Counted from the stretch's first letter, positions 1,772-51,710 are shown. The stretch: 64,000 nucleotides of DNA from an uncultured Candidatus Saccharibacteria bacterium (GCA_964585475.1 CAZPDF010000001.1:81337-145336), one strand, 5' to 3'. Program-made: numbers and translations. Notes: generated by a model not told the origin, from the letters alone.

Positions 1772-4252
1772 ATGGAAAAATCTAAAATTATCGTATTTTC
1801 CACCGCCTATCACCCATTTACAGGCGGTGCCGAGATTGCAATTCAGGAAGTATTGAGGCGGCTTCAAGACCGCTTTGACCCGCGCACAGAAAGGCCAAAT
1901 GAGCTAGGCGAGGCCAGCGGCCTTTTGTGCGGGGCTTCGCCCTCCGCACGGACCCCAAAAAGTAGTGGTAATACAAGGGAAAGTTCAAGCCCGTGCTCCG
2001 GGCTCCGTTTTTATATTGTAACTTCCCGTTTCAGGCGGGATTTACCAAAGATCGAAGAGCGACCCGAGGGAACCGTTATTCGGTTAGGGTTAGGGACACG
2101 TTTCGATAAATGGTTTCTCCCTTTTCTTGGTTTTTTTTCCGCCCGCAGAATCATTCGGTCAAATGTCAATGGTCAAACGTCAAATGTTGTCATGTGGGCC
2201 GTAGATATCGGGCAGGGGTCACTGGCAGCTGCGGTTTTCAAACTTTTTCATCCCCGCATCCCTTTAATTTTAACACTCCAATATGGATATGGAGCAGGAA
2301 GAGTTGTAGGGGGGCGACTTGGTCTTATTGGTGTGGCGTTTCGTTTCATGCTACGCCGCGCGGATTATGTCACAGCGATTTCAATATACTTATTAAATCT
2401 CGCGAAGAACCATGGATATAGAGGGTCGGGAAGCATAGTGCATAATGGAGTAGATATAGAAAAGTTCACCCCGTCATTCGACCGGGTGCCCCGTCGAATG
2501 ACGGGGCAAAATCCAAATTCTAAAACAGTAATCACTGTCTCCCGGTTGGTGCCCAAAAATGGCATAGATACGCTGATTAGCGCCATAGTCGAAGTTAAAA
2601 AATCAATCCCACAAATTCGTTGCCACATTCTTGGTGAAGGACCAGAAAAAGAAAGTTTAAAGTCACAAGTTAAAAGTTTAAAGTTGGATGAGAATGTCGA
2701 GTTTTTTGGGAATGTTCCGTATGACGAGATATCGAAATATCTTCACGAAGCCGATGTTTTTGTAAGGGCCTCGCGCTCGGAGGGCATGGGGAATGCATTT
2801 GTTGAAGCGTTGGCGGCAGGTGTCCCGATTATTGGCACGCCGGTTGAGGGAATACTTGATATTATTCAGGATGGCAAGACCGGTTTTTTTGCGCGGGTGG
2901 ACGATCCCAACGATCTTGCGCAAAAAATCGTCTATGTCCTTCAAAATGAAAAGGAGAGCGAGCAGAGCGTTACGGAAGGAAGACGAATGGTTGAAGAAAA
3001 ATTTTCCTGGAATGGGATCGCGCAAAAATACAGGTTTATTTTCGACCGCTACTATAGAGGCGAAACCTCTATAGTATCTATAGAGGTTTCGCCTCTCCGT
3101 ATAGTTATTGCCACCCCTCTTTATCCGCCACAGCTTGGGGGGCCAGCAATTTATGCAAAGAATTTAGGTGAGGAATTTTCTCGCTTAAGGCATCAAGTAT
3201 CCATTGTTTCCTTTGGTAAGTTTTTGCGTCTGCCGTCTTTGGTCAGGCATTTTCTTTATTTTTTTAAGGTTTTTCGTAGTTCCATTGGCGCGGATATTAT
3301 TTTTGCCCTGGATTATTTTAGCGTTGGGGCGCCGGCCGCCCTCGCCGCCCTGCTTTTATGTAAGCCACTCGTCATCCGCGTAGAAGGCGATTTTTTGTGG
3401 GAGAGTTATGTCGAGCGAAGAAGGAGCGATACAACTCTTTCTATGTTTTACCCCGCTAGAAGTCAGCCCCGACGTGACGTCGGGGCTGCCGTTCCGCCGG
3501 TGGCGGAACGGACTTCTAACGGGGCTTACCGGAATCTCCCGAGATTGTCGGCCAAAGAGCGAGTGATCCATTTTATAAGCCGGTGGGTACTTGGACGCTC
3601 GCGCATTCTTGTTTTTTCTTCGGAATGGCGCCGCGAGATGGTTGTCGGCTCACGCGGCCATCTCCGCAAGAAGTCGATAATTATCGGGAATGTATGGCCT
3701 CCGCTTCTCGAAAATCTTTCGGCAGTTTCTCAAGGATCTCGTGTAATTCTTTGGGCCGGCCGCATGCTTTATTTAAAAAATCTATATCGTCTGCTCCGCG
3801 CGTTTTCCCGACTAAAATCTGATTACGAACTGCATTTGGTAGGGGATGGTCCGGAAGCGGAACGGCTAAAAAACTTTGTCACGCAGGAACGGATCAAGAA
3901 AGTTTTCTTTTTTCCCAAACTCCCGCATGAGGCGCTGCTTAAGAAAATGCGTGAGGCGGCATTTTTTGTTCTGCCCTCGCTTTCCGAGGTGGGCCCGAAC
4001 GTGATTGCTGATGCGGCATCTTCAGGAACCCCTTTTATTATGACGAGAGAGTCGGGTTATGCCGAGTATGCCAAGGATTTTGGAATTTTCGTTGATCCGC
4101 TCAATGAAAATGAGCTCACGCAAAAGTTGGGGATGCTAATGGAGGAGACCGCGCGCTATAATATAAGAAAGGGAATTATTAAATTCTACAGCGCCTATAC
4201 ATGGGGCGAGGCTGCTCAAGAATGGATTCAAGTATTCTCAAAGGTTCTATGA
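1772..4252 (+). CDS. Tandem-fused GT4-family (GT-B fold) glycosyltransferase with two complete GT4 units
   Basis: Two N-terminal GT4 motifs ('FSTAYHPFTGGAEI', 'IATPLYPPQLGGPAIY'). Two Glycos_transf_1-type C-domains ('EGMGNAFVEALAAGVPIIGT', 'SEVGPNVIADAASSGTPFIMT'). Confidence 0.7.
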   Translation: MEKSKIIVFSTAYHPFTGGAEIAIQEVLRRLQDRFDPRTERPNELGEASGLLCGASPSARTPKSSGNTRESSSPCSGLRFYIVTSRFRRDLPKIEERPEGTVIRLGLGTRFDKWFLPFLGFFSARRIIRSNVNGQTSNVVMWAVDIGQGSLAAAVFKLFHPRIPLILTLQYGYGAGRVVGGRLGLIGVAFRFMLRRADYVTAISIYLLNLAKNHGYRGSGSIVHNGVDIEKFTPSFDRVPRRMTGQNPNSKTVITVSRLVPKNGIDTLISAIVEVKKSIPQIRCHILGEGPEKESLKSQVKSLKLDENVEFFGNVPYDEISKYLHEADVFVRASRSEGMGNAFVEALAAGVPIIGTPVEGILDIIQDGKTGFFARVDDPNDLAQKIVYVLQNEKESEQSVTEGRRMVEEKFSWNGIAQKYRFIFDRYYRGETSIVSIEVSPLRIVIATPLYPPQLGGPAIYAKNLGEEFSRLRHQVSIVSFGKFLRLPSLVRHFLYFFKVFRSSIGADIIFALDYFSVGAPAALAALLLCKPLVIRVEGDFLWESYVERRRSDTTLSMFYPARSQPRRDVGAAVPPVAERTSNGAYRNLPRLSAKERVIHFISRWVLGRSRILVFSSEWRREMVVGSRGHLRKKSIIIGNVWPPLLENLSAVSQGSRVILWAGRMLYLKNLYRLLRAFSRLKSDYELHLVGDGPEAERLKNFVTQERIKKVFFFPKLPHEALLKKMREAAFFVLPSLSEVGPNVIADAASSGTPFIMTRESGYAEYAKDFGIFVDPLNENELTQKLGMLMEETARYNIRKGIIKFYSAYTWGEAAQEWIQVFSKVL
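3451..3524. repeat. Family-B palindromic element (CCCCGCTAGAAGTC...GACTTCTAACGGGG) inserted in frame in the GT4 fusion gene
   Basis: 14-bp terminal inverted repeats enclose the hairpin GCCCCGACGTGACGTCGGGGC. It is about 75 bp (25 codons) with no stop and encodes PARSQ...ERTSNGA. Confidence 0.7.
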
Positions 4253-4325
4253 ATCCCGCACATAATTTGGACTACTAATTTGTAAGAGATCGGAGCGTTG
4301 TTACATATTTCATCGACCTTCAACC

Positions 4326-4399
4326 GTCATTCTGAACGCAGTGAAGAATCTCTATATATTTACTGGTGATTTGAGATCCTTCGCTTCGCTCAGGATGAC
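4326..4399. repeat. Family-A palindromic element (GTCATTCTGARCG-AGTGAAGAATCT ... GATCCTTCGCTTCGCTCAGGATGAC), intergenic
   Basis: Imperfect inverted repeat about 26 bp per arm. The same family occurs at 111-241, 11826-11939, 46158-46245 and 48679-48755. Confidence 0.7.
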
Positions 4400-4534
4400 G
4401 ATTAAATAAAGAATGTAAACAACACGATTAATTCCCACAACTAATTATCAAATAGCATATTTTATAATCATTGCTTGGCGTTCTGGGTTGTGTATAACTG
4501 CTAAGTCATCCACAGCTGCATAATTGTCTAAGTT

Positions 4535-5704
4535 ATGTGCGGGATGAAAATCCTTGTCATAGGGGGCGATCCGAGTATTTTTAATAAGGATTCGGAGAAT
4601 TTTTCCCGCATCAGCGAATATGCGGGGCTTTTTGACGAACTGCATATTGTCTCTTTTACTGCCCCCGGATTCAAAAAAGCCGAATTTAGCCCGAATCTCT
4701 TTCTTTATCCCACCAATACTTTTTTTGCGCCGTTGAGAGCATGGGATGCATACCGTATAGGGCGGAATATCGCCAAGGCCAGGCAGGTAGATATTATTGA
4801 TGCGCAGGATTCGGGGGAAGCGGGGCTTGTCGCATATCTCATTTCACGAATCACAAAAATTCCGTTTCGTATCCAAATCCACACGGATATTTTTAGCCCG
4901 TATTACCGTCGCGCATCGTGGAAAGAGCGCGTGCGTTTTATGCTGGCCAAATTTCTTATTCCGCGGGCAAATTGTATCCGGGTGGTGAGCGAGAGGATCA
5001 AAAGTTCGATAATTTCCAATTTCCCCGCCTTCGCCGAGGCTACGGCGGGCAGGCAATTTCCAATTTCCAAAATATCGGTACTCCCGATATTTACTGACAT
5101 ATCTAAATTCATTGAAGCAAAACCCGATCCGCGGATTGAGGATCGATTCCGCAATTACGATTTTAAGATGGTTGCGGTGGGGCGCCTGCTGGATAAAGAG
5201 AAAAATTTCAGCATGTTGATTGAAGTGATGCGGGATTTTATAAAGATATGCCCCAAAGCCGTCTTAGCGCTTGTGGGGAGTGGGTCTGATGAGGAAAAGT
5301 ACCGAATTCTTATCAAGCGGTATGGGCTTGAAAATCATGTTATCATAGAGCCATGGCGCGATGATTTGCCTTCGTTTCTCAAATCCTTTGACCTTTTCCT
5401 GCTTCCGTCTAACTACGAAGGGTGGGGCCGAGCGGTCACTGAAGCCATGGCCGCGGGTTTGCCGGTCGTAATGACCGACGTCGGGCTTGCCGGAGAAATA
5501 GTGAAAGAAGGGGTAAACGGTATCGTGGTTCCGGTGGGTGATAAAAAATCTTTTCTCCGCGTTCTCACCGAGCTTTATCAAAATCCGGGAAAAAGAAAAA
5601 ACCTGGCTTTGGCCGGAGAAAACTCGGTGAAGAATTTAAACCCCAAAACAAAAGAAGAGTACCTCGGCGCATATGAGAAAAGTATGCGCTCATGTCTTTT
5701 ATGA
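4535..5704 (+). CDS. GT4-family glycosyltransferase
   Basis: C-terminal motif 'LLPSNYEGWGRAVTEAMAAGLPVVMTDVGLAGEIV'. Confidence 0.75.
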   Translation: MCGMKILVIGGDPSIFNKDSENFSRISEYAGLFDELHIVSFTAPGFKKAEFSPNLFLYPTNTFFAPLRAWDAYRIGRNIAKARQVDIIDAQDSGEAGLVAYLISRITKIPFRIQIHTDIFSPYYRRASWKERVRFMLAKFLIPRANCIRVVSERIKSSIISNFPAFAEATAGRQFPISKISVLPIFTDISKFIEAKPDPRIEDRFRNYDFKMVAVGRLLDKEKNFSMLIEVMRDFIKICPKAVLALVGSGSDEEKYRILIKRYGLENHVIIEPWRDDLPSFLKSFDLFLLPSNYEGWGRAVTEAMAAGLPVVMTDVGLAGEIVKEGVNGIVVPVGDKKSFLRVLTELYQNPGKRKNLALAGENSVKNLNPKTKEEYLGAYEKSMRSCLL

Positions 5705-8138: not shown

Positions 8139-8149
8139 TTTTTGTATTT

Positions 8150-9244: not shown

Positions 9245-9298
9245 TATAACAGAAGGAGCGGAGTTTGTATAAGTGTAAAAATATGATTAATTTCAAAC

Positions 9299-9856
9299 AT
9301 GAACATACTTGTTTCGAGTTGGCGTAGACGTCAACTTCTTGAGGCCTATACCCTAGGAGGCGTTTTTTCCCCCGGCGTTTTGGTTTTGGACATCGGCTGC
9401 GGAAACGGAGAGATGGGGAGGGCCGTAGCCCAAGCTTTCGGGGTTCGCGTGGAAGGGGCGGACATCGTTAATCTATTGGAAGAGGACTTGTCATTCCATG
9501 CTTTGCCGGAAAGTTGGGAAAAGTGGCCAGTGCAGTATTTTGATGTGACCATGCTCAACGATGCCCTGCATCATATGAGTCCGGATACGCAAATATCTAC
9601 GCTAGGACATGCTTTGCGGGTCGGCAAAAAGGTTTTGATTTTCGAGACCCGCCCTACAATGCTCGCCAAGTTTCTTGACGTGGTCATGGGCCGCTTTGTT
9701 TACGGAGGCAGAGAGACGATAACATTGACCCATCGAGAGCCGGAGGCATGGACGCAGATATTAAAAGAGCTGGGATGGCGGACAAGATTGTATGATTTGC
9801 CAAGGCCCTTCTTTTATCCGTTACGTCATTTCGTTCTTGTGGTTGAACCTCGTTAG
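9299..9856 (+). CDS. Class I SAM-dependent methyltransferase
   Basis: Motif I 'VLDIGCGNGEMG'. Confidence 0.6.
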   Translation: MNILVSSWRRRQLLEAYTLGGVFSPGVLVLDIGCGNGEMGRAVAQAFGVRVEGADIVNLLEEDLSFHALPESWEKWPVQYFDVTMLNDALHHMSPDTQISTLGHALRVGKKVLIFETRPTMLAKFLDVVMGRFVYGGRETITLTHREPEAWTQILKELGWRTRLYDLPRPFFYPLRHFVLVVEPR

Positions 9857-9923
9857 AGAGAAACGCGGGGTGCCACTTTAAGAAACAGAGAAAATAAACA
9901 TCCGATGTTTCTCTCTAACGGGG
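9851..9923. repeat. Family-B-like palindromic element (CGTTAGAGAGAAAC...GTTTCTCTCTAACGGGG)
   Basis: Perfect 14-bp inverted repeat with a 42-bp spacer. It overlaps the stop codon of the methyltransferase gene. Confidence 0.6.
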
Positions 9924-9954
9924 CGAGCGCCAGCCTTAACGTAACTTTCTTTTT

Positions 9955-10674: not shown

Positions 10675-10757
10675 ACCCCGCCTTTGACCGCAGGGCATGC
10701 CAGGGCGGGGTAAGGGCGTAAAGAGTTAGCCGTAGGGTAGCGTTTTAAGAAATAAAT

Positions 10758-12401
10758 ATGCGCGAGAAAACTATTTTTTTTCTCATTATATTTTCCATCT
10801 CGTTTTTTTTCTCCACATATAAACTTACCGAGAGTCCGCCCACGTGGTATGATGAGGGTTTTTTCTTCAACGTCGCCAGAAGCTACGCAGAATTTAACGA
10901 ATATAAATTTCAGGTAGCTCCGGGTGAATTTGTGCCCATGGGAAGGTATCTTACGGTTGGGTATCCGGTTATTTTCCCGGTTAGTATCTCGATGAAATTA
11001 GCCGGAGTGGGCCTCTTTCAGGAGCGAGCAGTAATGGCGGCTTTTATTCTCCTCTTAGTATGCGCGGTCTTCTTCTTTTTCTTGAGGAGACATGCCCCTG
11101 CGGAGGCGTTTCTTTTCACCCTGTTTTTTATAAGTTTTGGGTCTCTTTATGGAAATGGGAAAAATTTACTGGGCGAGATACCGGGAATTTTCTTTCTCAC
11201 AGCATTTTTATTGTTCTTTAACCTGCTTTTGGAAAAGAATCGGGGAAAAATGTATTTTGCCCTGCTCGCCGGTACTGCCTTGGGCCTCGGCATACTCTGC
11301 AAGCCCATTTTTATACTGGTAATCCCCGCATTTATAATCACTTTTTTGATTTTACGAAAAGATATACTGTTGAAAATCACGCGTAAGCACCTGGTTTTAT
11401 TTTTAGCTGCCGTTTTGGTGCCGCTTCTGGCCGCTATTTTTATTCAGTTTAATCGCTCGGACGATTCTTTGCTGACGGCTATTTTATTTTATATGAATCC
11501 TGCCGGCTGGAGTGGTTTTTCTGAAGTGCCGTCTATAATAATGCAAAATCTCCTGCGTCTGGTAACCGGTGCCACACCCTTGCATTTTCTTCTGCTCCTC
11601 GCTATCTGGACTTGGTGGATAGTGAAAAGAGTTCGCTGCAATTCTATACATTCTTTGCCTCCTGGCGAGCTATTCACTTTTTTATTTGTTATTTTAGTGG
11701 GATTTGCTTATTTAAGGACCCTTGGATGGTATAAGTATTTCTTTCCCGCGCATATGATGGTTTTTCTCTATTTCCCCGCCGCTCTTAAGGCACTTATAGA
11801 ACTGATAACGAGCAAATCCGCAAATGTCATTCTGAGCGTAGCGAAGAATCTCCCGCTTTGGGCGCAAAAGATCCTTCACGGAGCCTACCCTGAGATTCTT
11901 CACTTCGTTCAGAATGATGATCGAAGGGTTCAGGATGACAGCGGAAAAAGTGTCTTACTCGCTACCAATTCTGAATCTTCCATACAATATCTAAGAGGAC
12001 GGTTTGGGTTTCCTAATTTATTTCAGTGGGCGTTCATCGTCATAATTGTGATACAATTTTATCACCTGGTGTTTTTATCCTGGGTTTCCGGTTACTATTC
12101 AAGTACGCAGTCCAAAGAATTATCTGATTATTTTTCCGGCATTTCGCACGAAGAGAGTGTTTTTATCCACAGCGCCCCGGAAGCGGTTCTTTTCGTCCCT
12201 TCCAGTAACTATTATTTGTATCTGGATGATGTAATGGTAAGAAATATTGGCGCAGAACAGCTCGAGAAACTCGCCAGTGGAGTTCCCGACGTCGTTATTA
12301 TTCCTACGGAGTTAATAGATAGCCAGAGACAGTACCTCGCGCATTATAGAAAAGAAAAAGAACTCGTGGGTCAGTACACTGTTTTGAGAAAAGCGCCATG
12401 A
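10758..12401 (+). CDS. GT39/ArnT-like (PMT_2-type) integral-membrane glycosyltransferase
   Basis: Multi-TM N-terminal two-thirds typical of ArnT/PMT family GT-C enzymes. Follows a GT2 gene. Carries an in-frame family-A repeat. Confidence 0.5.
   Translation: MREKTIFFLIIFSISFFFSTYKLTESPPTWYDEGFFFNVARSYAEFNEYKFQVAPGEFVPMGRYLTVGYPVIFPVSISMKLAGVGLFQERAVMAAFILLLVCAVFFFFLRRHAPAEAFLFTLFFISFGSLYGNGKNLLGEIPGIFFLTAFLLFFNLLLEKNRGKMYFALLAGTALGLGILCKPIFILVIPAFIITFLILRKDILLKITRKHLVLFLAAVLVPLLAAIFIQFNRSDDSLLTAILFYMNPAGWSGFSEVPSIIMQNLLRLVTGATPLHFLLLLAIWTWWIVKRVRCNSIHSLPPGELFTFLFVILVGFAYLRTLGWYKYFFPAHMMVFLYFPAALKALIELITSKSANVILSVAKNLPLWAQKILHGAYPEILHFVQNDDRRVQDDSGKSVLLATNSESSIQYLRGRFGFPNLFQWAFIVIIVIQFYHLVFLSWVSGYYSSTQSKELSDYFSGISHEESVFIHSAPEAVLFVPSSNYYLYLDDVMVRNIGAEQLEKLASGVPDVVIIPTELIDSQRQYLAHYRKEKELVGQYTVLRKAP
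11826..11939. repeat. Family-A palindromic element inserted in frame in the GT39-like gene
   Basis: GTCATTCTGAGCGTAGCGAAGAATCT...AGATTCTTCACTTCGTTCAGAATGAT plus a trailing GTTCAGGATGACAGC. Translates without stop as ANVILSVAKNLPLWAQKILHGAYPEILHFVQNDDRRVQDDSG. Confidence 0.65.
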
Positions 12402-13414
12402 CGGGATCTAATGCTTCAAAAATCATTTGTCCCATCTGCGGCCGGACAAGCGATATCCAAGAAAGCAGATTTGAGAATTTTCTCGTCTGCTTATTGTGTG
12501 GCGGACATTTTGCAAAAAAGACCGAAGCGCCCGCTTATCTCGAGGATTATTTTGAGGAAGAAGGCACATCCTTTATCCCCCCACCAAAAGACCACGGGTA
12601 CAGGCCCGTGGATGAATGGAATAGTAACCTGAAGGGTAAGGAAGGACACCATGGGCGTAAGCCCATGGTGGGGGGATTTATATACCTGGCAGCAAGACCC
12701 CTCGCTCGGCTTTTTCTCTGGATGCGGCTAAGAAAAATCTTTCGTCTGCCCAAAACCATCCGGATTTTGGATTATGGGGCCGGGGATGGTAAGTTAGTTG
12801 CCTATCTTCGCTCCCACGGGCTTGACGCTGTCGGCTTTGATCCGAGCCCGGCCGCAGTCAAAGTTGCTCGTAATCACGGACGGCCGGTGTACTCGCGGAT
12901 TGATGGCCCTCTTTTTGACTTAATGATGTTCTGGCATAGTTTGGAGCATGCGGAATGGCCACTCGAGGTTATTGCGGGCGCCCGAGAGCATTTGGGGACA
13001 GGAGGCCGGCTTTTGATTGCAGTGCCTAATGCCGCCAGTTGGGAGGCCAGGTTTTTTGGGTCTCTATGGTTCCATTATGATTACCCCTTTCATGTGGTCC
13101 AATTTACACCGGTCTCCCTCTCGTATATGCTGGAAAAAAACGGTTTTAAAATTACTTCATGGGATTTTTTTAGTCCGGAGTATACGTTATCAGGTCTAGT
13201 ACAGTCGTTCCTGAACCTTTTTTTCCCTAAAAACTTTCTTTATAGTTTATTTAGTCAACGCCGATTTGGAATTTCTCGAGCGTATGCGCGCCTGTATCTT
13301 GTTCCAGCCCTGCCTTTAATCGTAATTTTCTTGCCGTTTCTGGTGTTGTTTTTCTTTTTAGAACTGGTATGTAGGAGAAGTGGGGCCATGATTGTGATGG
13401 CGGAGCGCCAATAA
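12398..13414 (+). CDS. Class I SAM-dependent methyltransferase with N-terminal Zn-ribbon
   Basis: 'CPICG...CLLCGG'. Motif I 'ILDYGAGDGKL'. 'MMFWHSLEH'. Contains a family-E repeat in frame. Confidence 0.6.
   Translation: MTGSNASKIICPICGRTSDIQESRFENFLVCLLCGGHFAKKTEAPAYLEDYFEEEGTSFIPPPKDHGYRPVDEWNSNLKGKEGHHGRKPMVGGFIYLAARPLARLFLWMRLRKIFRLPKTIRILDYGAGDGKLVAYLRSHGLDAVGFDPSPAAVKVARNHGRPVYSRIDGPLFDLMMFWHSLEHAEWPLEVIAGAREHLGTGGRLLIAVPNAASWEARFFGSLWFHYDYPFHVVQFTPVSLSYMLEKNGFKITSWDFFSPEYTLSGLVQSFLNLFFPKNFLYSLFSQRRFGISRAYARLYLVPALPLIVIFLPFLVLFFFLELVCRRSGAMIVMAERQ
12575..12678. repeat. Family-E palindromic element (ATCCCCCCACCA...TGGTGGGGGGAT) in frame in the methyltransferase gene
   Basis: 12-bp perfect terminal inverted repeats. 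Encodes FIPPPKDHGYRPVDEWNSNLKGKEGHHGRKPMVGGFIY. Confidence 0.65.
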
Positions 13415-13427
13415 GAGGCTTCTAGGT

Positions 13428-14678: not shown

Positions 14679-14699
14679 TTACTTTGGGTTACGAAATAC

Positions 14700-14816: not shown

Positions 14817-14819
14817 ACT

Positions 14820-15872: not shown

Positions 15873-15894
15873 TCTACCTTTGATTATGAAATTA

Positions 15895-15999: not shown

Positions 16000-16002
16000 T
16001 CC

Positions 16003-16974
16003 ATGGCAAAGATAGCGATCATTGGCTCCACGGGACAACTTGGCTATGATCTTTTGCGTTATGCTCCCGAGTCGGACACCGTGGTGGGTTTGGGGCACGG
16101 GGATATTGAAATAACGGACGCCAAAAACGTTACCGCAGTTTTGGAAAAGATCCGACCGGATATCGTAATAAACGCGGCGGCTTTTAATGAAACAGAAGAG
16201 GGAGAAAAAAATCCGATATTGCCTTTCAGCATCAATGCGGTTGGCGCATATCATGTGGCCAAGATCGCCGCAGATATTGGCGCCGCGGTCGTTCTCTTAA
16301 GCACGGATTACGTGTTTGACGGCACTAAGCCCTCCTTTAGCGAGGAAGATATACCGAATCCCCTCAATGTTCACGGCGCGTCAAAATACGCGGGGGAAAT
16401 ATTGACGCGGATTGCCAACCCCCGCAATTTTATTATCCGCACCGGATGGCTATTTGGAAAAAACACCAGCCATAAAGGATACAATTTTGTAACCCTGATG
16501 CTTGAGAAGGCCAAAAGCGAGAAGGAAATTAAGGTAGTGAACGACCAGGCGGGCAAGCCGACTTATACCGTTGATTTGGCGATTAAGATCTATGAACTTC
16601 TTCACCCCGTTACTCCCATGAAGCTCCGGCTTTCGGGGCGGAGCGGAATGGAAGTTGAAGGCCATCTATCAGCTTCCTTGGGAGAATCCTTACCCTTTAG
16701 AGCGGGGAGTAACGGGGTTCATAAAAATCCGCCGCATGGAATTTATCATCTTACCAATGAAGGCCAGGCAAGCTGGTTTGATTTTGCAAGAGAAATTTTT
16801 GAGCTCTCGCATCTTTCGGTGAAAGTAACTCCCATCTCAACGCTTGAGAGCGGATCCAAAATCAGGAGACCTAAATTTTCTATTCTCGAGAACCGCGCCA
16901 TACAAAAAATTGGTTTAGCGCCTCTTAGGTCTTGGCAGGAAGCGCTCGCTCGCTATCTTGAAGAAATAAAATAA
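16003..16974 (+). CDS. rfbD: dTDP-4-dehydrorhamnose reductase (RmlD-like) carrying a roughly 38-aa in-frame repeat insertion
   Basis: 'KIAIIGSTGQLGYDL'. 'VLLSTDYVFDG'. 'YGASKYAGE'. 'IIRTGWLFG'. Confidence 0.75.
   Translation: MAKIAIIGSTGQLGYDLLRYAPESDTVVGLGHGDIEITDAKNVTAVLEKIRPDIVINAAAFNETEEGEKNPILPFSINAVGAYHVAKIAADIGAAVVLLSTDYVFDGTKPSFSEEDIPNPLNVHGASKYAGEILTRIANPRNFIIRTGWLFGKNTSHKGYNFVTLMLEKAKSEKEIKVVNDQAGKPTYTVDLAIKIYELLHPVTPMKLRLSGRSGMEVEGHLSASLGESLPFRAGSNGVHKNPPHGIYHLTNEGQASWFDFAREIFELSHLSVKVTPISTLESGSKIRRPKFSILENRAIQKIGLAPLRSWQEALARYLEEIK
16606..16717. repeat. Family-B-variant palindromic element (CCCCGTTACTCC...GGAGTAACGGGG) in frame in rfbD
   Basis: 12-bp perfect terminal inverted repeats. 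Encodes an extra HPVTPMKLRLSGRSGMEVEGHLSASLGESLPFRAGSNGV loop not expected in RmlD. Confidence 0.6.
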
Positions 16975-18310: not shown

Positions 18311-18324
18311 GACTTCTAACGGGG
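18311..18324. repeat. Solo family-B half-site (GACTTCTAACGGGG) abutting the start codon of the next gene
   Basis: Identical to the right arm of family-B elements. No left arm found within 150 bp upstream. Confidence 0.4.
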
Positions 18325-18755
18325 TGGAAATAACTAAAGGCATAAAACCGGAATTTGCGGATATAAGAGGCGCCATTACCAAAATTCTGGACGATGGCAG
18401 GACGAATATAAAAAGCGTCCTTTTGATCACTTCCAAAAAAGGAGCTATCCGCGCGAATCACTATCATAAAAAAGATACGCACTACTGTTATATGCTTTCG
18501 GGAAAAATGGAGTATTTTGAAAAGCCGGTCCCTAGGTCGCTTGATGCGACCGGGATTCCGGCCGAAGGTTTAGGGATTGACGGAGGAAAGATTGAATCGG
18601 CAGTGCTTGAAGTTGGCGATATGGTTTTTACCCCATCGATGCACGTCCACGCCTTTAAATTTCTTGAAGACACCGTGTGGGTTACGCTTGCCACCGAGTC
18701 AAGGTCGCAGGCCGATTACGAGGCGGACACGGTAAGGGTTAAATTCATAGAATAA
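18324..18755 (+). CDS. WxcM/FdtA-like cupin (dTDP-4-keto-6-deoxyhexose 3,4-ketoisomerase-like)
   Basis: 'ADIRGAITKIL...VLLITSKKGAIRANHYHKK...YMLSGKMEY' resembles the FdtA/QdtA core. GTG start. Confidence 0.5.
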   Translation: MEITKGIKPEFADIRGAITKILDDGRTNIKSVLLITSKKGAIRANHYHKKDTHYCYMLSGKMEYFEKPVPRSLDATGIPAEGLGIDGGKIESAVLEVGDMVFTPSMHVHAFKFLEDTVWVTLATESRSQADYEADTVRVKFIE

Positions 18756-18783
18756 GCACAAAATTCAAAGCACAAAATCCAAA

Positions 18784-19857: not shown

Positions 19858-19860
19858 CTT

Positions 19861-20856: not shown

Positions 20857-20898
20857 TTTCGCAACCGTGCACCCTAAAAATACGTTAGATAAGGTAGA

Positions 20899-22083: not shown

Positions 22084-22098
22084 CAGCCCACGAGCAAC

Positions 22099-25499: not shown

Positions 25500-25502
25500 T
25501 TT

Positions 25503-25575
25503 ATGCTTTTGTCAGTCGTCATCCCGGCATATAACGAGTGGAAAACCATTCGTGCGATTGGAGCTAGTGACCCCG
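25503..25575 (+). pseudogene. Orphan 5' fragment of a GT2 glycosyltransferase gene (MLLSVVIPAYNEWKTIRAIG...) truncated by a palindromic element
   Basis: Near-identical to the N-terminus of the intact GT2 at 26299 ([19 protein letters not shown]). The frame runs into repeat 25571..25764. Confidence 0.5.
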
Positions 25576-25764
25576 TTAGAAATCCAGCCATGGCTATATT
25601 ATTAAGAAGGTAGAAAGGCGAAGCCCCGTTTGAAAGCTCGCATTGCAAGCATCTCGAAGTAAAAAATTGCCTGCGGTTTGACAAACAACTTTCTGACGAG
25701 GCGAAGCCGACTTACGTCTATCCGCTTCTTTAAACGAAGTACCTTTTTAAGATTTCTAACTGGG
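25571..25764. repeat. Family-B palindromic element (CCCCGTTAGAAATC...GATTTCTAACTGGG), 194 bp
   Basis: 14-bp terminal inverted repeats. Lies between the GT2 fragment and the TA cassette. Confidence 0.55.
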
Positions 25765-25771
25765 TTGACGT

Positions 25772-26038
25772 ATGGCCAAGGTAGAGTATGCTGATAACAT
25801 GAATACTTCTGCAATTATTGCAGTTCGTCTTCCAAGGGAAGAAAAGAAGCGGTTGGGCCGTTTGGCTTTGCGCTACGGTCTTTCTCTCCCGGAATTTTCC
25901 CGCCGCGTGCTGACTGAACTTGCGGCAGAGATTCCCGAAGAATCCCTCAAGGATTATGAGAATCCAAGGAAACTTAGCGCCTCGTATCAACGCGCGCTCC
26001 GTGATTGGAAAACTGGCCGTGTGCGCACCCGAATATGA
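25772..26038 (+). CDS. Ribbon-helix-helix (CopG/RHH-like) antitoxin
   Basis: 'IIAVRLPREEKKRLGRLALRYGLSLPEF'. ATGA overlap with the downstream RelE-like gene. Confidence 0.55.
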   Translation: MAKVEYADNMNTSAIIAVRLPREEKKRLGRLALRYGLSLPEFSRRVLTELAAEIPEESLKDYENPRKLSASYQRALRDWKTGRVRTRI

Positions 26039-26292
26039 ATATTGTCTACGCAGAGGAGTTTGTGAAGCGATTGGACAAACTTTCTTCAGAAATTCAGCGG
26101 CTTTACCGCAGACAGGAAGCCCGATTTCGAAATAATTGGCGCGATCCGCGTCTGCATATTAAGAAGTTGAAAGATCATCCGTTTCCCTTCTCATTCCGCA
26201 TCACCCGTAGATACCGGGTGCTTTTTACGTTTGTAGCAGTCGATACTGTTCTTTTTGCAACCATCGGCCATAGACGCGGTAGTTACCGCTAA
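26035..26292 (+). CDS. RelE/ParE-family type II toxin
   Basis: 'FSFRITRRYRVLFTFVAVDTVLFATIGHRRGSY' matches the RelE/ParE C-terminal signature. Confidence 0.7.
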   Translation: MNIVYAEEFVKRLDKLSSEIQRLYRRQEARFRNNWRDPRLHIKKLKDHPFPFSFRITRRYRVLFTFVAVDTVLFATIGHRRGSYR

Positions 26293-26298
26293 CCTCAC

Positions 26299-27027
26299 AT
26301 GTTTATCTCCGTCATAATCCCAACCTACAATGAGGAAAAAACTATTCGCGAGATCGTTGCGCGGGTTAAAAAGGTTTCCATTCCAAAAGAGATTGTTATT
26401 GTGAATGACGGCTCGACAGATGCCACCCCGAAGATTTTGGAAGAATTGAAGGCGACCGCAAAAACGGATCAGAATTTTCTAGGGATTGTCGTTATAAATA
26501 AAAAAAACAACGGCAAGGGTTCGGCACTCAAGAAGGGGATTGAAGCTGCTCGCGGCGACATTATTATTTTTCAGGACGCCGATCTTGAATATGACCCCGA
26601 AGATTACCACAATCTTATCCGTCCGATTCTTGAGGGGCATGCGCGCGTGACAATGGGTTCTCGAATGTTGATCAAGCAAAACATATGGACGGCTGGCAGG
26701 CACTACCTTGTTTATCTTCGAAATCATATAGGGGTTCGCACCATGACGTTTCTGACCAATTTTTTATATCGGCAAAACGCTACCGATTATTGGGGATGCT
26801 ACAAGGCGTTTCGCGCAGATATTTTAAAAAGCATTCCGATCGAAGCCGACGGTTTTGCGTTTGATAATGAACTTGTCTGTAAGATTCTTCGTAGAGGTCA
26901 TACCATCCATGAGGTCTCTATTCGGTATCGACCCCGAAGCTATGAAGAGGGGAAAAAAGTAAAGATGCGGGATGGCCTGAAGAGCTTGTGGACAATTTTA
27001 AAATGGCGCTTTGTGCCATTTAAGTGA
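26299..27027 (+). CDS. GT2-family polyprenyl-phosphate glycosyltransferase (DPM1-like)
   Basis: '[14 protein letters not shown]'. '[10 protein letters not shown]'. '[11 protein letters not shown]'. Confidence 0.8.
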
Positions 27028-27050
27028 AAACTTTATTTCTCTGGCAGAAA

Positions 27051-27085
27051 ACCCCGCCCCTTGGGGCGGGGAAGCGGTTATTTTT
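27051..27085 (+). terminator. Rho-independent terminator-like hairpin (CCCCGCCCC-TTG-GGGCGGGG + T-run)
   Basis: Perfect 9-bp GC stem followed by 'TTATTTTTG'. Confidence 0.5.
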
Positions 27086-27148
27086 GTTAACCGGCGCTCG
27101 CACGTTTTCGCAAAAGTTGGGTAAACCCCGCCCTTTGACCGTGGGGCA

Positions 27149-28774
27149 TTACACCTCGCGGCAAAGTAGCGCCGAAGAAATCTTGCGCCAAGAGCGTAGG
27201 GTATTCCCAAAGAGCGGGGTAAAACCGTAACTGGCGAGGATAAATATGAAGGCGTTTACGGGGTAGCGGAAGCGGCCCTGGTCGCTGAAGCCGGCCACCG
27301 TACTCGTCAGAGCATAAGTGAAGATTATGGCGCTCATGATAAGCGCTATTTTTCTTTCCTGCCCGCCGCGTTTTATGGCGTAAGCCGCGCCCAAGACCCA
27401 TAAGACATTAAAAACGATCCATAGAGCCCGTCCGGCAACTGGAATGGGGGCGAACCATCCGATTCGTTCCCAGACAAGTTTTGCGAGTTTCATCGGCCCT
27501 TCCTGAAATAGGGTCACCGATGGGGAAAAATCAATCTGGAAACGGGGTACTGCGTGAAAATGTTGTAGATAAGTGAGATAGAGGTCTTGGGCAAAGAAAG
27601 TGGACATGCTGATTAAGACGACCTGTGCAGTCTCTTTTGGATAAGTAATGATGGTTTGCAGGCCCTCTTTTGCAAGCGCGGTGCCTATGCTCGGATTTTC
27701 TCCTATATCGCGGATTTCCAGGCCATGTCTTGCGGAAAAATCGCGGTTAAGCTCATTTTTTACTTCTCCGATGGGTCTTCCGGTGTTGAGAGAAAGAATT
27801 GAAGATCCGATGGAGGAGTAGACATTGCGGAGGCCGGTGGTGGCGATATTGAGGGTATTGAATTGATAGTAATTGCGGATGAGCCAGGGAGAAAGCACGA
27901 CGAAGAAAGCAAGGGTAAAAGCCAGCAATATGCGACTTCCTCGGTATTTTGCTTCTCCGGCACGCTCATCCGCTCCAGCGGCGGATTCGCTAAGGGTCGG
28001 TCGAGCCGCCCCGCCTTCGGCGGGTACCGAGCCGGCTCTACCTCCCATTACCGGCGAAGCAAAATACCTCGGCAGTATTTTAGATCGCCGCCACCTTAGG
28101 AGAAGGATGGAGAGAAGAAAGAAGAAGCCGAGTATAAAAAGAAATTGCGCGTGAGGGCGCGTTAGGGTGGAGAGCGCGAGGAAGATTCCGGCGAGAGCCG
28201 CATAGCGCATTCCCCAATCATCAACCCCGTTAGAAGTCTGTTCCGCCGAAGGCGGAACAGCAGATGCCTGTGGCATCTGACTTCTAACGGGGTCAAGGGT
28301 TTTTAAAAAAAAGTATGTCGCAAGAAGTAGAAAAAAAACCGCAACCGTTTCGGTAAGAACAAGAATGCTCCATACAGCACCCATCGGCTCAAACGCCATG
28401 AGTCCTGCGGCCAAAAGCGGTACCCCCCCCGACTTAGCAAGAAATTTAGCGATCGCGTATACCAGAATCGGCATAAGCGAAGAAAGAATTATTTGTAGTA
28501 TAAGTAGGGGCAGCATTGATCCGGAAAGTTTGAGGGAGCCCGCCATGAGCAAGGGAAAGATCGGAGGAAAATGGGCGCTTGGCTGGAAAGGTAGCGCTTC
28601 GCTTCCACTGAATCCGTTTCCGGCGACGATGTTCTTTGCCGTTAGAAGAAATCCGTAGGAATCGGATGTAAAAGTTTTTTCTTCGCCAAGCGTGTGGATA
28701 ATAGTAAAAAGCAGTGCAGCCCTTAAGACAAAAGTTGCGACAACGATAATGAGAAGTGTTCGCGGCAAATTCAT
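27149..28774 (-). CDS. GT39/ArnT-like integral-membrane glycosyltransferase with an in-frame family-B repeat and a C8/G8 homopolymer
   Basis: Multi-TM. 'LTAKNIVAGNGFSGS' ArnT/PMT-like N-region. Convergent with the GT2 at 26299. Confidence 0.5.
   Translation of the reverse strand: MNLPRTLLIIVVATFVLRAALLFTIIHTLGEEKTFTSDSYGFLLTAKNIVAGNGFSGSEALPFQPSAHFPPIFPLLMAGSLKLSGSMLPLLILQIILSSLMPILVYAIAKFLAKSGGVPLLAAGLMAFEPMGAVWSILVLTETVAVFFLLLATYFFLKTLDPVRSQMPQASAVPPSAEQTSNGVDDWGMRYAALAGIFLALSTLTRPHAQFLFILGFFFLLSILLLRWRRSKILPRYFASPVMGGRAGSVPAEGGAARPTLSESAAGADERAGEAKYRGSRILLAFTLAFFVVLSPWLIRNYYQFNTLNIATTGLRNVYSSIGSSILSLNTGRPIGEVKNELNRDFSARHGLEIRDIGENPSIGTALAKEGLQTIITYPKETAQVVLISMSTFFAQDLYLTYLQHFHAVPRFQIDFSPSVTLFQEGPMKLAKLVWERIGWFAPIPVAGRALWIVFNVLWVLGAAYAIKRGGQERKIALIMSAIIFTYALTSTVAGFSDQGRFRYPVNAFIFILASYGFTPLFGNTLRSWRKISSALLCREV
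28225..28292. repeat. Family-B palindromic element in frame in the GT39-like gene
   Basis: CCCCGTTAGAAGTC...GACTTCTAACGGGG. Encodes DPVRSQMPQASAVPPSAEQTSNGVDD on the minus strand. Confidence 0.7.
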
Positions 28775-28914
28775 GATTTAACAGTAGTAAAATTTCTGTT
28801 ATTATTCAAAGGTATGTCCTCGACAGGCTCGGACAATGGCATTTATTCCCTGAGCTTGTCGAAGGGTATACCTTATTGTGCGCCTTCGACAAGCTTAGGC
28901 AATGATGTATACGT

Positions 28915-29646
28915 ATGCTTCGTAAAATTATAACCTTTTTTCTTATACGTCCGTTTCATTTCTTCTTATCCCGGCCGTGGGTGAGATATTCGTTGGTTGG
29001 CGCCCTATATCATAACTCTTTGAGTCCGCGAGACAAGATGCTTTATATTGCCATGCACTACGCTTGGGCATCTAAATTGACGGGAGATTATTTTGAGTTT
29101 GGAGTGTATAAAGGTTCAAACATGATAGCGGCTTTCCACATTTCTAAACGCTACTTGCCAAACCTTAATTTTTACGCTTTTGATTCGTTTGAGGGCTTGC
29201 CGGAGCCGAAGGAAGATAAAGATGGGTTTCGTCCCTTTGAGAAAGGGCAATTTTCCTGCAGCAAGGAGCATTTTCTTGCTAACTTAAAGAGAAAGGAAGT
29301 GGACATGTCGCGCGTGCATACGATCGCCGGGTGGTACAAAGATACCCTGAATGAACAAACTCGCGCTTCGCTTCCTGCAAAGTCGGCCGCGATTGTATAT
29401 ATAGACTGCGATTTATACGAATCGGCGCTAAGTGTCCTTGATTTTATTGTTCCTTACCTTGAGGACGGTTCGCTCATTCTTTTTGACGAGTGGTTCGCGT
29501 ATCGTGGTGATCCTGCTAAAGGGGAGCAGAAAGCGTTTCGCGAATGGCTAGGGGGGGGGCGCAACCCGCAGATTTCGGCAACCGAATACCAAAAATTCGG
29601 CTGGAGCGGAAATTCGTTTATTATTCACGTTAGGAATAAGTCATGA
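28915..29646 (+). CDS. TylF/MycF-family SAM-dependent sugar O-methyltransferase
   Basis: 'EFGVYKGSN'. 'DSFEGLPEP'. 'IDCDLYESALSVLDFIVPYLEDGSLILFDEW'. Confidence 0.6.
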   Translation: MLRKIITFFLIRPFHFFLSRPWVRYSLVGALYHNSLSPRDKMLYIAMHYAWASKLTGDYFEFGVYKGSNMIAAFHISKRYLPNLNFYAFDSFEGLPEPKEDKDGFRPFEKGQFSCSKEHFLANLKRKEVDMSRVHTIAGWYKDTLNEQTRASLPAKSAAIVYIDCDLYESALSVLDFIVPYLEDGSLILFDEWFAYRGDPAKGEQKAFREWLGGGRNPQISATEYQKFGWSGNSFIIHVRNKS

Positions 29647-29647
29647 T

Positions 29648-30433
29648 ATGACTTTAGACTTTTATAGAAAAATTAGACATGTTCCAGCCGGTATTCTTGC
29701 AAAATTCTTTGAAAGACAGGCGGAAATGACGCTCCGAAAAAATCGTCCTTTGTGGGGTTTACTGCAGGATTATCTTAAAAATTCGCCCTCAACCGGATGC
29801 GCCTATTCTGATTATCTTCTTCTCTATAATTACATCAGAAACAGAAAGCCCAAGGAAGTTCTTGAGTGCGGTACGGGGGTTTCCACAGTTGTTATTGCGT
29901 ATGCGCTGAAAGAGAACGAACGGGATTATGGGATTAAGGGCAGGGTTACTTCAATGGAAGAATCGCCTAATTATTACAATGTAGCGCTAAAGCTGTTTCC
30001 AGAGAGAGAGAGCCTTAAAAGCTATGCAGAGATAGTATTGAGTCCGGTGATGGAAGATACTTATCATTTCTTTCGCGGCATACGTTATAAAGATGTTCCT
30101 TTGCGGCCATATGATTTTGTATTTGTGGATGGCCCTGATTATTTGTGCGATCCAAAAGGCGAGATAATTTTATTCAATTTTGATTTTGTGGATATAGTTA
30201 GAAAATCAGAAAAACCCGTAGGGGCCCTGATAGATACCAGAACCACCACCTGTTTTGTGTACTCACTGCTTTTTGGAGATGAGTTTAGATATGACTATGT
30301 GCGAAAAGTGGGAATCGTGGAGCCGGTTACGAAAAACGATCTCGCGCCGGTCCAAAAAATTGTCGCAAGGTCAATGAGGGCGCATTCATTCAAAAGGCCG
30401 CCTTTCCTGAATTTCATACGAGGAACTTATTGA
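29648..30433 (+). CDS. Class I SAM methyltransferase (Methyltransf_24/CmcI-like)
   Basis: 'VLECGTGVSTVVIAYAL'. 'DFVFVDGPD'. Confidence 0.45.
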   Translation: MTLDFYRKIRHVPAGILAKFFERQAEMTLRKNRPLWGLLQDYLKNSPSTGCAYSDYLLLYNYIRNRKPKEVLECGTGVSTVVIAYALKENERDYGIKGRVTSMEESPNYYNVALKLFPERESLKSYAEIVLSPVMEDTYHFFRGIRYKDVPLRPYDFVFVDGPDYLCDPKGEIILFNFDFVDIVRKSEKPVGALIDTRTTTCFVYSLLFGDEFRYDYVRKVGIVEPVTKNDLAPVQKIVARSMRAHSFKRPPFLNFIRGTY

Positions 30434-31905
30434 ATACAGGTATGAAAACAATTTTTATTACTATTGATGATCCGGCGGCACTAAAGAACATTTTCGGCAC
30501 CAAAGCATGGCCCGAGGTTTTGCGATCTTCCGCGGATGCCAAACTCGTGCTTTTGACGAGGCCTAGCAAAAAGGAAGCACACGAGAAGTTCTTTGTTGCG
30601 CCGAACATCGTGGTTGAAGCGCTTGATCCTGCGTTTGATTCTCTTATGTCGGGCGTAATTGCGTCTCTGGCCCGCAGCGGGATTAGAACCCATACCAATC
30701 TTTGGTCTAAAATGCGCTCTTACGAACGGGGTGATTCTGGGTTTTTGGTGACAATGTTCAAGCGGGCATATACTTTTCTTTTGGGCGGATCGTCTCTCAA
30801 TAAGAGGTTTTTGCGTCGTATCTTTCTGGGGCTTGCGCCGGCCAAAGCGACGGCCGCACTCTTTGAAAAATATCAGCCCTCGCTTCTTTTTGCGACCTCG
30901 CTCACCAACATTGATTTTGACGTGCCTATCGCGGTTGAGGCGAAAAGGCGCGGCATACGGATCGTCGGCATGGTGCGAAGCTGGGATAATTTTTCGAGCC
31001 ACGGGCTCACTCGTGTAATCCCGGATCGGTTGATCTTGCAAAATAAGTTTTTAAAAGATATGGCCGAGCGGCACCAGGCTATCACCGAAAAAGACGTGCC
31101 GATCGATATCGTTGGTTTGCCGCACTATGACATGTATGTCGGTTTTGAAAAAATGCTTGAAAGCAGAGAATCATTTTTCCAAAGGATGGGGCTCGACCCT
31201 TCAAAAAAACTGATTCTTTACGGGGCAATGGGGGATTTTCTTTTTCCGAATGAGGGGGGAATGGCCGACGTGCTTGAGGAACTGATTGACCCCGTTAGAA
31301 GTCAGACGCCAAAGGCATCTGCTTATTCCCAAGGGAATCAGACTTCTAACGGGGTTGAATCGCGGGCTATTCAAGAGCCAGCCCAAGTTCTTTTCCGCGC
31401 CCACCCAAAATTCAATAGTCCCCTTGAAAGGATGAAAGGAATGAAACATGTTAAGCCGGACAAAGACGTGTCCAATAGTACGGGCGATTTCATGAAGCAT
31501 CTTATAAATTCCATTTACCATAGTGATATTGTTGTTGCTGGCGCATCTACGATCGTGATTGATTCTATAATGTTGGCAAAACCCGTGATTTGCGTTGGTT
31601 TCGATGGCCTTGAAAAAAAGGTTCCCTATTGGACTTCGGTAAAGCGTTTTTATGACTGCTACACGCATTTTGAAGCGTTAATGGAAACAGGCAATATACC
31701 GCTTGCGAATACCAAAGCAGAATTGGCGCGTTTAATAGATGAGGCCCTCCGGCAGAAATCCTACGACCAAGAGCCGCGCCAAAAAGTGATTGATCTTTTC
31801 GTGGCGCCATTTGATGGACATTCAAGCGAGCGGCTCGCCCAAATCTTAGTCAAAGAATTTACTAGTATACGAGATGGACAGCGGATTCAACCAAAAATTC
31901 ATTGA
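30430..31905 (+). CDS. GT-B-fold polysaccharide biosynthesis protein (CDP-glycerol glycerophosphotransferase TagB/F-like or capsule-synthesis KpsS-like) with an in-frame family-B repeat
   Basis: Two Rossmann-like halves. 'FRAHPKF...IVVAGASTIVIDSIMLAKPVICV'. The family assignment is uncertain. Confidence 0.35.
   Translation: MNTGMKTIFITIDDPAALKNIFGTKAWPEVLRSSADAKLVLLTRPSKKEAHEKFFVAPNIVVEALDPAFDSLMSGVIASLARSGIRTHTNLWSKMRSYERGDSGFLVTMFKRAYTFLLGGSSLNKRFLRRIFLGLAPAKATAALFEKYQPSLLFATSLTNIDFDVPIAVEAKRRGIRIVGMVRSWDNFSSHGLTRVIPDRLILQNKFLKDMAERHQAITEKDVPIDIVGLPHYDMYVGFEKMLESRESFFQRMGLDPSKKLILYGAMGDFLFPNEGGMADVLEELIDPVRSQTPKASAYSQGNQTSNGVESRAIQEPAQVLFRAHPKFNSPLERMKGMKHVKPDKDVSNSTGDFMKHLINSIYHSDIVVAGASTIVIDSIMLAKPVICVGFDGLEKKVPYWTSVKRFYDCYTHFEALMETGNIPLANTKAELARLIDEALRQKSYDQEPRQKVIDLFVAPFDGHSSERLAQILVKEFTSIRDGQRIQPKIH
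31290..31354. repeat. Family-B palindromic element in frame in the TagF-like gene
   Basis: CCCCGTTAGAAGTCAG...GACTTCTAACGGGG. Encodes DPVRSQTPKASAYSQGNQTSNGVE. Confidence 0.7.
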
Positions 31906-51708: not shown

Positions 51709-51710
51709 GT

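Follow-up and report, generated by a model that had tools for sequence, protein, structure and literature searches.

How did the same short palindromic segment come to lie, in frame, inside three unrelated enzyme genes of one bacterium? The question is raised by a 64,000-nucleotide stretch of DNA from an uncultured Candidatus Saccharibacteria bacterium (GCA_964585475.1 CAZPDF010000001.1:81337-145336; this whole stretch is called the window, and positions are counted from its first letter). The three copies, here named E1, E4, and E5, had been pointed out in an earlier note on this DNA, which described them as a selfish hairpin element with a translatable frame and likened them to the palindromic elements of Rickettsia. 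Based on the analyses below, we consider the element, called family B, to be a non-autonomous cut-and-paste miniature inverted-repeat transposable element (MITE) that resembles Rickettsia palindromic elements (RPEs) in its behavior, with a probability of about 0.85.

Family B has terminal inverted repeats of 13–14 bp, (C/T)CCCGTTAGAAG(T)C, and a variable interior. The window was scanned on both strands for the 14-mer CCCCGTTAGAAGTC, allowing up to 2 mismatches, and the result was compared with 100 shuffles. The arm pair CCCCGTTAGAAGTC/GACTTCTAACGGGG gave 12 matches in the window versus 0.33 expected, and none of the 100 shuffles reached 12. After pairing of the arms, the window holds six paired copies, three in frame and three intergenic, plus one solo arm (Table 1). 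The positions of the three in-frame copies had been given exactly in the earlier note; to these are added E6, E7 (with variant arms), the degenerate E3, and the solo arm. E1, E4, and E5 share one stop-free phase (C CCC GTT AGA AGT...ACT TCT AAC GGG G), and the order and orientation of their inner hairpins are also the same. Their peptides had been quoted correctly, but the first and third had been assigned to the wrong genes: PARSQPRRDVGAAVPPVAERTSNGA belongs to the gene with two family-4 glycosyltransferase modules (GT4–GT4) and DPVRSQTPKASAYSQGNQTSNGV to the TagF-like gene.

Comparison with homologs indicates that these segments were inserted. All 47 homologs aligned lack them. In the TagF-like homologs (23/23, one of them 75% identical), ...ELI continues directly into ESRAI..., without the 23 residues; the GT39-like homologs (15/15) lack the 24 residues, whose site lies between two predicted hydrophobic membrane helices; and the aligned GT4–GT4 homologs (9/9) lack the 26 residues of E1. 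The segments are thus not an ancient conserved loop. At the DNA level, the 75%-identical TagF-like ortholog (L053) has a single TTGA at 1210–1213 where the window has TTGA, the 65-bp E5, and a second TTGA, and the alignments of the two flanks overlap on this TTGA. Removal of E5 and one TTGA from the window sequence leaves CTG ATT GAA TCG (L-I-E-S), which is the L053 sequence; the L053 site is a textbook empty site for E5. L053 has a family-B copy of its own elsewhere (1460–1527, GFD-PVRSQMPQASAVLPKAEQTSNGV-GG), and because this copy is at a different site, both insertions are later than the split of the lineages. In an AlphaFold2 model of the TagF-like protein (mean predicted local distance difference test score, pLDDT, 86.8), residues 287–305 score below 50 and form a coil between a helix (272–282) and a strand (314–319). 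This coil coincides with the E5 insert (residues 283–305 in the numbering of the model), and the E5 peptide is thus predicted to sit in a disordered loop. The two-module architecture of the GT4–GT4 gene, labeled a fusion in the earlier note, is ancestral and widespread (~750 aa in homologs), so that E1 did not create it.

Other inserts occur in these genes or in their homologs. The TagF-like family has a second hot spot (alignment columns ~495–522; L053 1460–1527), where homologs P0002, P0007, and P0012 carry three different inserts after a conserved GFD, one of them family B. The GT39-like gene has a second in-frame palindromic insert at 27935–28076 (26-nt arms, RNA fold –73.5 kcal/mol); at this position, homolog P0129 carries a comparable insert (..RYF.S....KYRG..), and the inserts of several other homologs are unrelated. 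The GT4–GT4 protein has a 43-residue N-terminal insert (aa 40–82, ~1889–2017) that is missing from nine homologs, and a perfect 19-bp palindrome (3056–3096) lies in the linker between its GT4 modules.

To see family B beyond the window, a collection with one genome per species was searched for the exact arm pair spaced by 30–60 bases. The pair occurs in 52 loci of species-representative genomes, with a chance expectation of ~5e-4 (our estimate from 28 fixed bases), and copy statistics were derived from 57 copies from ~45 metagenome-assembled genomes (MAGs). By record title, the carriers within the Candidate Phyla Radiation (CPR) are Saccharibacteria, Staskawicz-, Sung-, Doudna-, Yanofsky-, Kaiser-, Taylor-, and Kerfeld-bacteria, and Parcubacteria, and the carriers outside it are Deltaproteobacteria, Nitrospinota, Nitrospirota, Omnitrophota, Thermodesulfobacteriota, Dehalococcoidales, and Beta/Gammaproteobacteria MAGs. 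The element is present in assemblies of many independent projects; its recurrence in dozens of independent assemblies excludes an assembly artefact.

The copies are flanked by a 4-bp duplication that is perfect in 30 of the 57 cases. At any other length between 1 and 8 bp, at most three copies show a perfect duplication, and none does with shifted 4-mers. The consensus of the duplication is TNNA, with T at –4 and A at –1 each found in 51/57 copies. Together with the empty site, this duplication shows that the elements transpose with a 4-bp target duplication. Second family-B copies were seen in 12 of the related loci. In 12 copies beyond the 57, found in the same loci without selection on the arms, the duplication is perfect in 9 cases; in arm positions 1–13 of these unselected copies, 10/12 departures from the consensus are mirrored in both arms. 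Mismatches in the duplication are concentrated in coding copies (34 in 26 copies, versus 11 in 31 noncoding copies), which suggests that intragenic copies are kept longer than noncoding ones. We also considered whether imperfect duplications that keep the outer T and A are carried-over donor overhangs, as in piggyBac-type transposition, and rejected this idea, as an excess of mismatches at the inner positions occurs only in coding copies, whose outer positions are second codon positions; the noncoding copies show no such excess.

The copies within genes share a reading frame. With intragenic defined as spanned by an open reading frame (ORF) that extends 40 codons or more to either side, 26 of the 57 copies (46%) are intragenic, 25 of them in the phase PVRS...TSNG and one, in G6PD (L013), in the other open phase, PLEV...LLTG. 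The third phase is closed by a TAG in the left arm and a TAA in the right arm. In 26/26 intragenic copies, the element plus its duplication is a multiple of three and there is no stop in the host frame; the lengths of noncoding copies include 64, 66, 69, 70, 75, 79, 81, and 84 bp. TNNA sites in the ORFs of the window number 1475 for the PVRS phase, 893 for the PLEV phase, and 965 for the stop phase, and by our calculation the ratio of 25:1 compared with 1475:893 corresponds to a binomial p of ~8e-5 (slightly larger when two orthologous pairs are counted once). Target-site availability does not account for the frame bias. In the favored phase and orientation, the consensus of the class I copies described below reads PVRSQTPEASADAQAHRTSNG, which is small, hydrophilic, and rich in Pro, Ser, Thr, Ala, and Gly. 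The other open phase gives the strongly basic PLEVRRQRRLPMRKRIGLLTG, and the favored phase in reverse orientation gives PVRSPMRLRIGRRLWRLTSNG. Most simply, loops would tolerate no version but the small, hydrophilic, and uncharged one; the element may have been shaped toward a benign frame or may just have been filtered. A predicted tryptic peptide spanning a host–insert junction is, for example, SQTPEASADAQAHR. A 47-aa tandem of two peptide variants yielded no candidates when compared with a set of 5.8 billion proteins.

Of the 20 host ORFs tested, 19 carry Pfam domains of real, unrelated genes. Hosts outside the window include DnaE (DNA polymerase III alpha), SMC, GDH, PGI, G6PD, Rpe, SOD, Trp/Tyr-RS (class I tRNA synthetase), Acs, CarB, GatC, AtpG (ATP synthase gamma), AtpC (epsilon), trigger factor, Mfd, and LepA. 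These are not glycan enzymes; the element, found in the window in three sugar-pathway genes, is not specific to surface-glycan enzymes, and essential genes are also hit.

Table 1. Host genes, family-B copies, and other palindromic elements in the window, with their coordinates
Feature	Position	Strand	Size	Arms; flanking tetranucleotides	Context
Host gene 1	1772..4252	+	826 aa		two tandem GT4 modules (Pfam); homologs of the same architecture ~750 aa
Host gene 2	27149..28774	-	541 aa		PMT/PMT_2 (GT39-type) membrane glycosyltransferase (Pfam)
Host gene 3	30430..31905	+	487 aa from ATG at 30442		CDP-glycerol glycerophosphotransferase (TagF/Glyphos_transf, Pfam)-like
E1	3451..3524	+	74 bp	left arm with 1 mismatch (CCCCGCTAG); TTTA/CTTA	in frame in GT4–GT4 ORF 1772..4252; aa 561-585, PARSQPRRDVGAAVPPVAERTSNGA
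E3	25571..25764		194 bp	CCCCGTTAGAAATC / GATTTCTAACTGGG; GTGA/TTGA	intergenic, degenerate
E4	28225..28292	-	68 bp	perfect arms; perfect TCAA/TCAA (coding strand: TTGA)	in frame in GT39/PMT_2-like ORF 27149..28774; aa 161-184, DPVRSQMPQASAVPPSAEQTSNGV
E5	31290..31354	+	65 bp	perfect arms; perfect TTGA/TTGA	in frame in TagF-like ORF 30430..31905; aa 287-309, DPVRSQTPKASAYSQGNQTSNGV
E6	48647..48825		179 bp	perfect arms; TGAA/TGAA	intergenic; RNA fold –97.9 kcal/mol; duplication includes stop codon of ORF 47794..48645
E7	51710..51827		118 bp	variant arms TCCCGTTAGAAGC / GCTTCTAACGGGA (TCCCG.../...CGGGA); TGAG/TGAG	intergenic; duplication includes stop of ORF 50965..51708
Solo right arm	18311..18324		14 bp	GACTTCTAACGGGG; no recognizable left arm	adjoins GTG of ORF 18324..18755
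Palindrome	16605-16717			TTCA/TTCA	in frame in ORF 16003..16974, HPVT...SNGV
CCCCCCACC... family	12577-12675 and 40351-40451				in frame in ORFs 12398..13414 and 39462..40610
Palindrome	2469-2506		38 bp		in frame in ORF 1772..4252
Terminator-like GC-rich hairpins	50799-50926, 27126-27219, 10676-10710			CCCCGCCC...GGGCGGGG; TNNA direct-repeat flanks	
Arm variants	53871-53928, 9848-9923, 36178-36206			CCCCGTTA... or CCCATTAGAAAC	related elements

Six short noncoding copies, together with E6 and E7, lie exactly at the stop codon of an upstream gene. The duplication includes this codon, so that the gene keeps its stop. In E7, the two changes in the arms are mirrored in both of them, and the final base (the A of the variant arm) plus TG forms the ATG of ORF 51827..53344; the site was evidently an overlapping ATGA stop/start originally. 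Inside E6 is a long hairpin with a nested palindrome from another family (GTCATCCTGAG...CTCAGAATGAC) and the CAGATGCC..GGCATCTG hairpin module. The solo arm is probably a truncated copy. Next to E3 (region 25503–26298), a fragment of 22 codons that looks like the beginning of a GT2 gene (MLLSVVIPAYNEWKTIRAIGAS) terminates at the E3 flank. Two small ORFs separate E3 from the intact GT2 gene (26299..27027); by eye, they resemble a ribbon-helix-helix antitoxin and a RelE/ParE-like toxin.

How would such a distribution arise? Inverted repeats, a fixed duplication with an empty site, multiple copies, a bias of frame and orientation, a loop location, and covarying hairpins (see below) are directly observed and lead us to the MITE assignment. 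In this scheme, a transposase supplied in trans would insert the element at TNNA, duplicating the 4 bp. The short inverted repeats, fixed 4-bp duplication, empty sites, and many copies argue for a DDE-type cut-and-paste enzyme. Insertions in the phase with stops (TAG/TAA in the arms) would be lost, leaving two phases open. As the genomes are ~90% coding, two kinds of copy would survive: those in surface loops that accept an insert, read in the benign phase and orientation, and those at a stop codon or gene junction, with the stop restored by the duplication. Purifying selection probably acts as the filter. The idea of a selfish hairpin in a translatable frame, already put forward in the earlier note, fits the 4-bp duplications, the 25:1 frame bias, and the disordered-loop location.

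Several results weigh against the MITE assignment or restrict its basis. No transposase was found among the 17 large ORFs of the window, which all encode glycan-pathway or housekeeping proteins. When arms were paired over long distances, within the window and within 53 related loci, the result was no autonomous copy but only combinations of separate small ones, and an all-against-all comparison of ORFs of at least 250 aa from related loci revealed no shared mobile gene. Viral contigs contained no paired copy; their 11 solo-arm matches, in coding sequence of a few phage groups and with no partner arm, are within chance. Copies found by the exact-arm search were ascertained on perfect arms, so that arm conservation is not readable from that set, and the taxonomic breadth depends on the MAG labels of submitters. 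Frame statistics alone point to translation of the inserts. Finally, the CarB proteins of two loci, L033 and L044, are 79% identical, and a family-B copy with identical arms occupies the same position in both genes, despite saturated four-fold sites (35/106 matching, 33%). A purely neutral selfish model does not predict such identity without re-insertion or homogenization.

The two CarB copies share one inner hairpin, the other being completely different, and their duplications are imperfect and slightly different (TTAA/TGAA and TTAA/TAAA). The pair could reflect constraint on the arms at the nucleotide level, copy replacement by recombination, or repeated insertion at a hot spot. A metagenome scan for CarB genes with any insert at this site, the result of which does not make arm decay measurable, gave seven bacterial genes with in-frame inserts of 20–30 residues at the same TTAA/TAAA/TTGA site. 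These inserts all come from other C-rich-ended palindromic families and none is family B. The filling of one loop by different families indicates that permissive loops are hit repeatedly and independently, which makes repeated insertion at the L033/L044 site plausible. The loop, which follows ..QFALNP, holds at least six palindromic families in different metagenomic lineages (L065, L067, L069, L079, L083, and L085/L086), and one peptide reads SFPRRRESI. The scan also caught eukaryote-type carbamoyl-phosphate synthase genes with an intron nearby (L066, L068, L070–L078, L080–L082, L084, and L087), which are unrelated to the element.

The CarB pair bears on an alternative that we regard as unlikely, namely that the element is kept for a function, its stem and three-way junction being selected at the nucleotide level as an RNA or DNA structure and mobility being only the means of spread. 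Possible roles would be a translation pause site, an mRNA stabilizer or terminator, or a protein binding site. Short copies (62–84 bp; copies in the window reach 194 bp) have no transposase coding capacity and fall into two classes. Class I (62–75 bp, mostly CPR) has an outer stem of 13–14 bp and two GC-rich inner hairpins, with RNA folding energies of –33 to –60 kcal/mol, and class II (79–84 bp, mostly non-CPR or low-GC genomes) has an AT-rich interior with little structure. In 13 class I copies of equal length, the inner helices covary, with 11 pairs changed on both sides; 98% of the inner-helix cells are paired, compared with 34–44% when the partner is slid, and 0/500 shuffles reach the observed value. 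Since the structure was derived from the same sequences, the slid control is somewhat flattering; distinct stem sequences are nevertheless numerous. Strong compensatory changes in both inner hairpins and in the arms, 14-bp arms that are identical across several phyla, the L033/L044 pair, and the precise placement of intergenic copies between stop and start codons are all compatible with a functional structure. Against it, close orthologs manage without the insert, the hosts are unrelated and the sites differ, and the interior sequence is not conserved, nor is the structure of the AT-rich class. In other lineages, quite different palindromic families occupy the same CarB loop, which shows that permissive TNNA sites commonly receive repeated independent insertions. 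Arm variants that are mirrored and flanked by perfect duplications look more like recent copies of variant master elements than like old copies under constraint, and the exact-arm search itself favors intact arms.

The elements are small and perfectly palindromic, come in many sequence families, and have strongly maintained hairpins, features that also call to mind repetitive extragenic palindromic (REP) repeats, which would be moved as single-stranded hairpins by an HUH tyrosine transposase (RAYT/IS200-like) and not by a DDE enzyme. IS200/IS605 and REP/RAYT systems are not known to duplicate their target, and their insertion site is next to a specific tetranucleotide. REP/BIME elements are extragenic and lack a duplication, whereas about half of the family-B copies (46%) are intragenic, a fixed 4-bp duplication flanks most of them, and the empty site has one copy of the 4 bp. 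We therefore consider a RAYT-type origin very unlikely.

The very stable RNA structures inside ORFs (–33 to –60 kcal/mol) could also be taken to mean that the segment is removed from the RNA or bypassed by the ribosome in an intron-like manner, leaving host proteins without the peptide. PMC13011429 describes introns as unusually frequent in RNA genes of Patescibacteria, which would suit such a process. If this were so, length and phase would be irrelevant, yet 26/26 intragenic copies preserve the multiple of three without stops and 25/26 use one phase. Noncoding copies vary in length (64–84 bp), and a search of the entire window against Rfam 15 gave no match to a curated RNA family. The chance that RNA removal explains the element appears slight. 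Ancient variable enzyme loops or assembly/polishing artefacts are of negligible probability, as 0/47 aligned homologs have the insert, a DNA-level empty site exists, the same sequence occurs in unrelated genes and intergenic DNA from many independent assembly projects, and nothing was found in favor of them.

With family B taken as a MITE, the question is how it relates to known systems. For RPE-1 to RPE-10, nearly half of the copies lie inside unrelated ORFs, in frame (Ogata et al. 2000, summarized in PMC10969869). Family B is similar in being a short palindromic repeat of a small, gene-dense genome, with nearly half of the copies in unrelated ORFs, a shared peptide, and a location predicted to be compatible with the host fold. 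It differs in size (62–84 bp versus ~100–150 bp), in having terminal inverted repeats of 13–14 bp and a 4-bp TNNA duplication, and in occurring in many phyla, versus one genus for RPEs. The insert peptides matched no NCBIfam or Pfam model, even at E ≤ 10; NCBIfam presumably includes RPE domain models. The Rickettsia parallel drawn in the earlier note thus stands for behavior, but, as judged from these profile comparisons, family B does not appear to be homologous to RPEs.

As expected of a MITE, family B is short and non-coding, has terminal inverted repeats, a duplication, and an empty site, and is present in multiple copies per genome (six paired and one solo in the 64 kb of the window). Like the bacterial MITEs Correia/NEMIS, ERIC, BOX, RUP, Coxiella QMITE, and those of Anabaena, it combines a non-coding, multi-copy nature with inverted repeats, duplications, hairpin transcripts, and occasional in-frame fusions (PMC10969869, PMC11602168). 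A survey of 183,232 genomes found MITEs to be mainly intergenic and 97.4% genus-specific (PMC11602168). In contrast, 46% of family B is intragenic, and the same ends occur in CPR bacteria, Nitrospirota, Nitrospinota, Deltaproteobacteria, Omnitrophota, and others. Correia elements duplicate TA, whereas family B duplicates the 4-bp TNNA. Full-text searches of a partial library gave no description of such elements in CPR/Patescibacteria, which is not proof of novelty. Family B adds a new family to a known kind of element, with unusual taxonomic breadth, an unusually strong frame preference, and essential genes among its hosts.

As to the transposase, piggyBac elements duplicate a 4-bp TTAA (rarely TCAA, TAAA, or TTAG) and have inverted repeats starting with CCC, with IS1380 as prokaryotic outgroup (PMC10813416). 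Family B is similar in its CCCCG ends and its 4-bp duplication at a T..A tetranucleotide, and differs in that its target is relaxed to TNNA, the comparison being one of ends and duplication alone. For IS1380, the ISfinder family table gives ends of CC and duplications of 4–5 bp. This resemblance makes an IS1380/piggyBac-like transposase a tentative lead, to which we assign clearly less than even odds. A broader scenario, which we consider rather doubtful, is that family B is one branch of a CCC-ended, TNNA-targeting piggyBac/IS1380-like bacterial superfamily that has crossed phyla among co-occurring groundwater bacteria (CPR symbionts and possible hosts), and that its miniatures have evolved a benign frame and a length of 3n–4 for colonizing essential genes of ultra-small genomes, with arms and hairpins also under nucleotide-level selection as functional structures.

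Family B belongs to a wider set of CCCC...GGGG/TNNA elements in the window. When the window was scanned for CCCC...GGGG palindromes, with an arm length of 11 bp or more, 16 matches (including a few overlapping calls) were obtained versus 0–1 in shuffles, many of them with TNNA duplications. The four other in-frame palindromes in Table 1 include two with perfect TNNA duplications (TTCA and TTTA). Among the terminator-like hairpins, the 128-bp element at 50799–50926 (TAAA/TAAA) holds a nested 26-bp element (50888–50913) with its own TTCA/TTCA, and some apparent terminators in the genome may be mobile. The element at 9848–9923 (CCTCGTTAGAGAGAAAC arms) overlaps the end of ORF 9299..9856, which enters the stop phase and ends at the TAG of the arm; the C-terminus of this ORF may have been replaced by the element. 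A different palindrome family (TCATTCTGAGCG...CGTTCAGAATGA) is in frame at 11827–11917 in the PMT_2-like ORF 10758..12401 (NVILSVAKNL...ILHFVQND), with a second copy nested inside E6 (48679–48790). In the epimerase/dehydratase ORF 44969–46090 (minus strand), the Pfam domain match is split into two stretches, hinting at another internal insert.

The finding explains a class of inserts of 20–30 residues in proteins of CPR and other uncultured bacteria that disturb homology searches, domain calls (as split Pfam hits), and structure models. Even a highly streamlined genome can thus retain selfish DNA, which survives there within genes, essential ones included, and the independence from the Rickettsia case suggests that this is a general outcome of high coding density. 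The presence or absence of copies provides fine-scale strain markers, and the 13–14 bp ends common to several phyla could be used to follow gene flow from or to episymbiotic CPR bacteria within their communities. If the transposase is indeed piggyBac/IS1380-like, family B would represent a natural bacterial system for seamless transposition into 4-bp targets.

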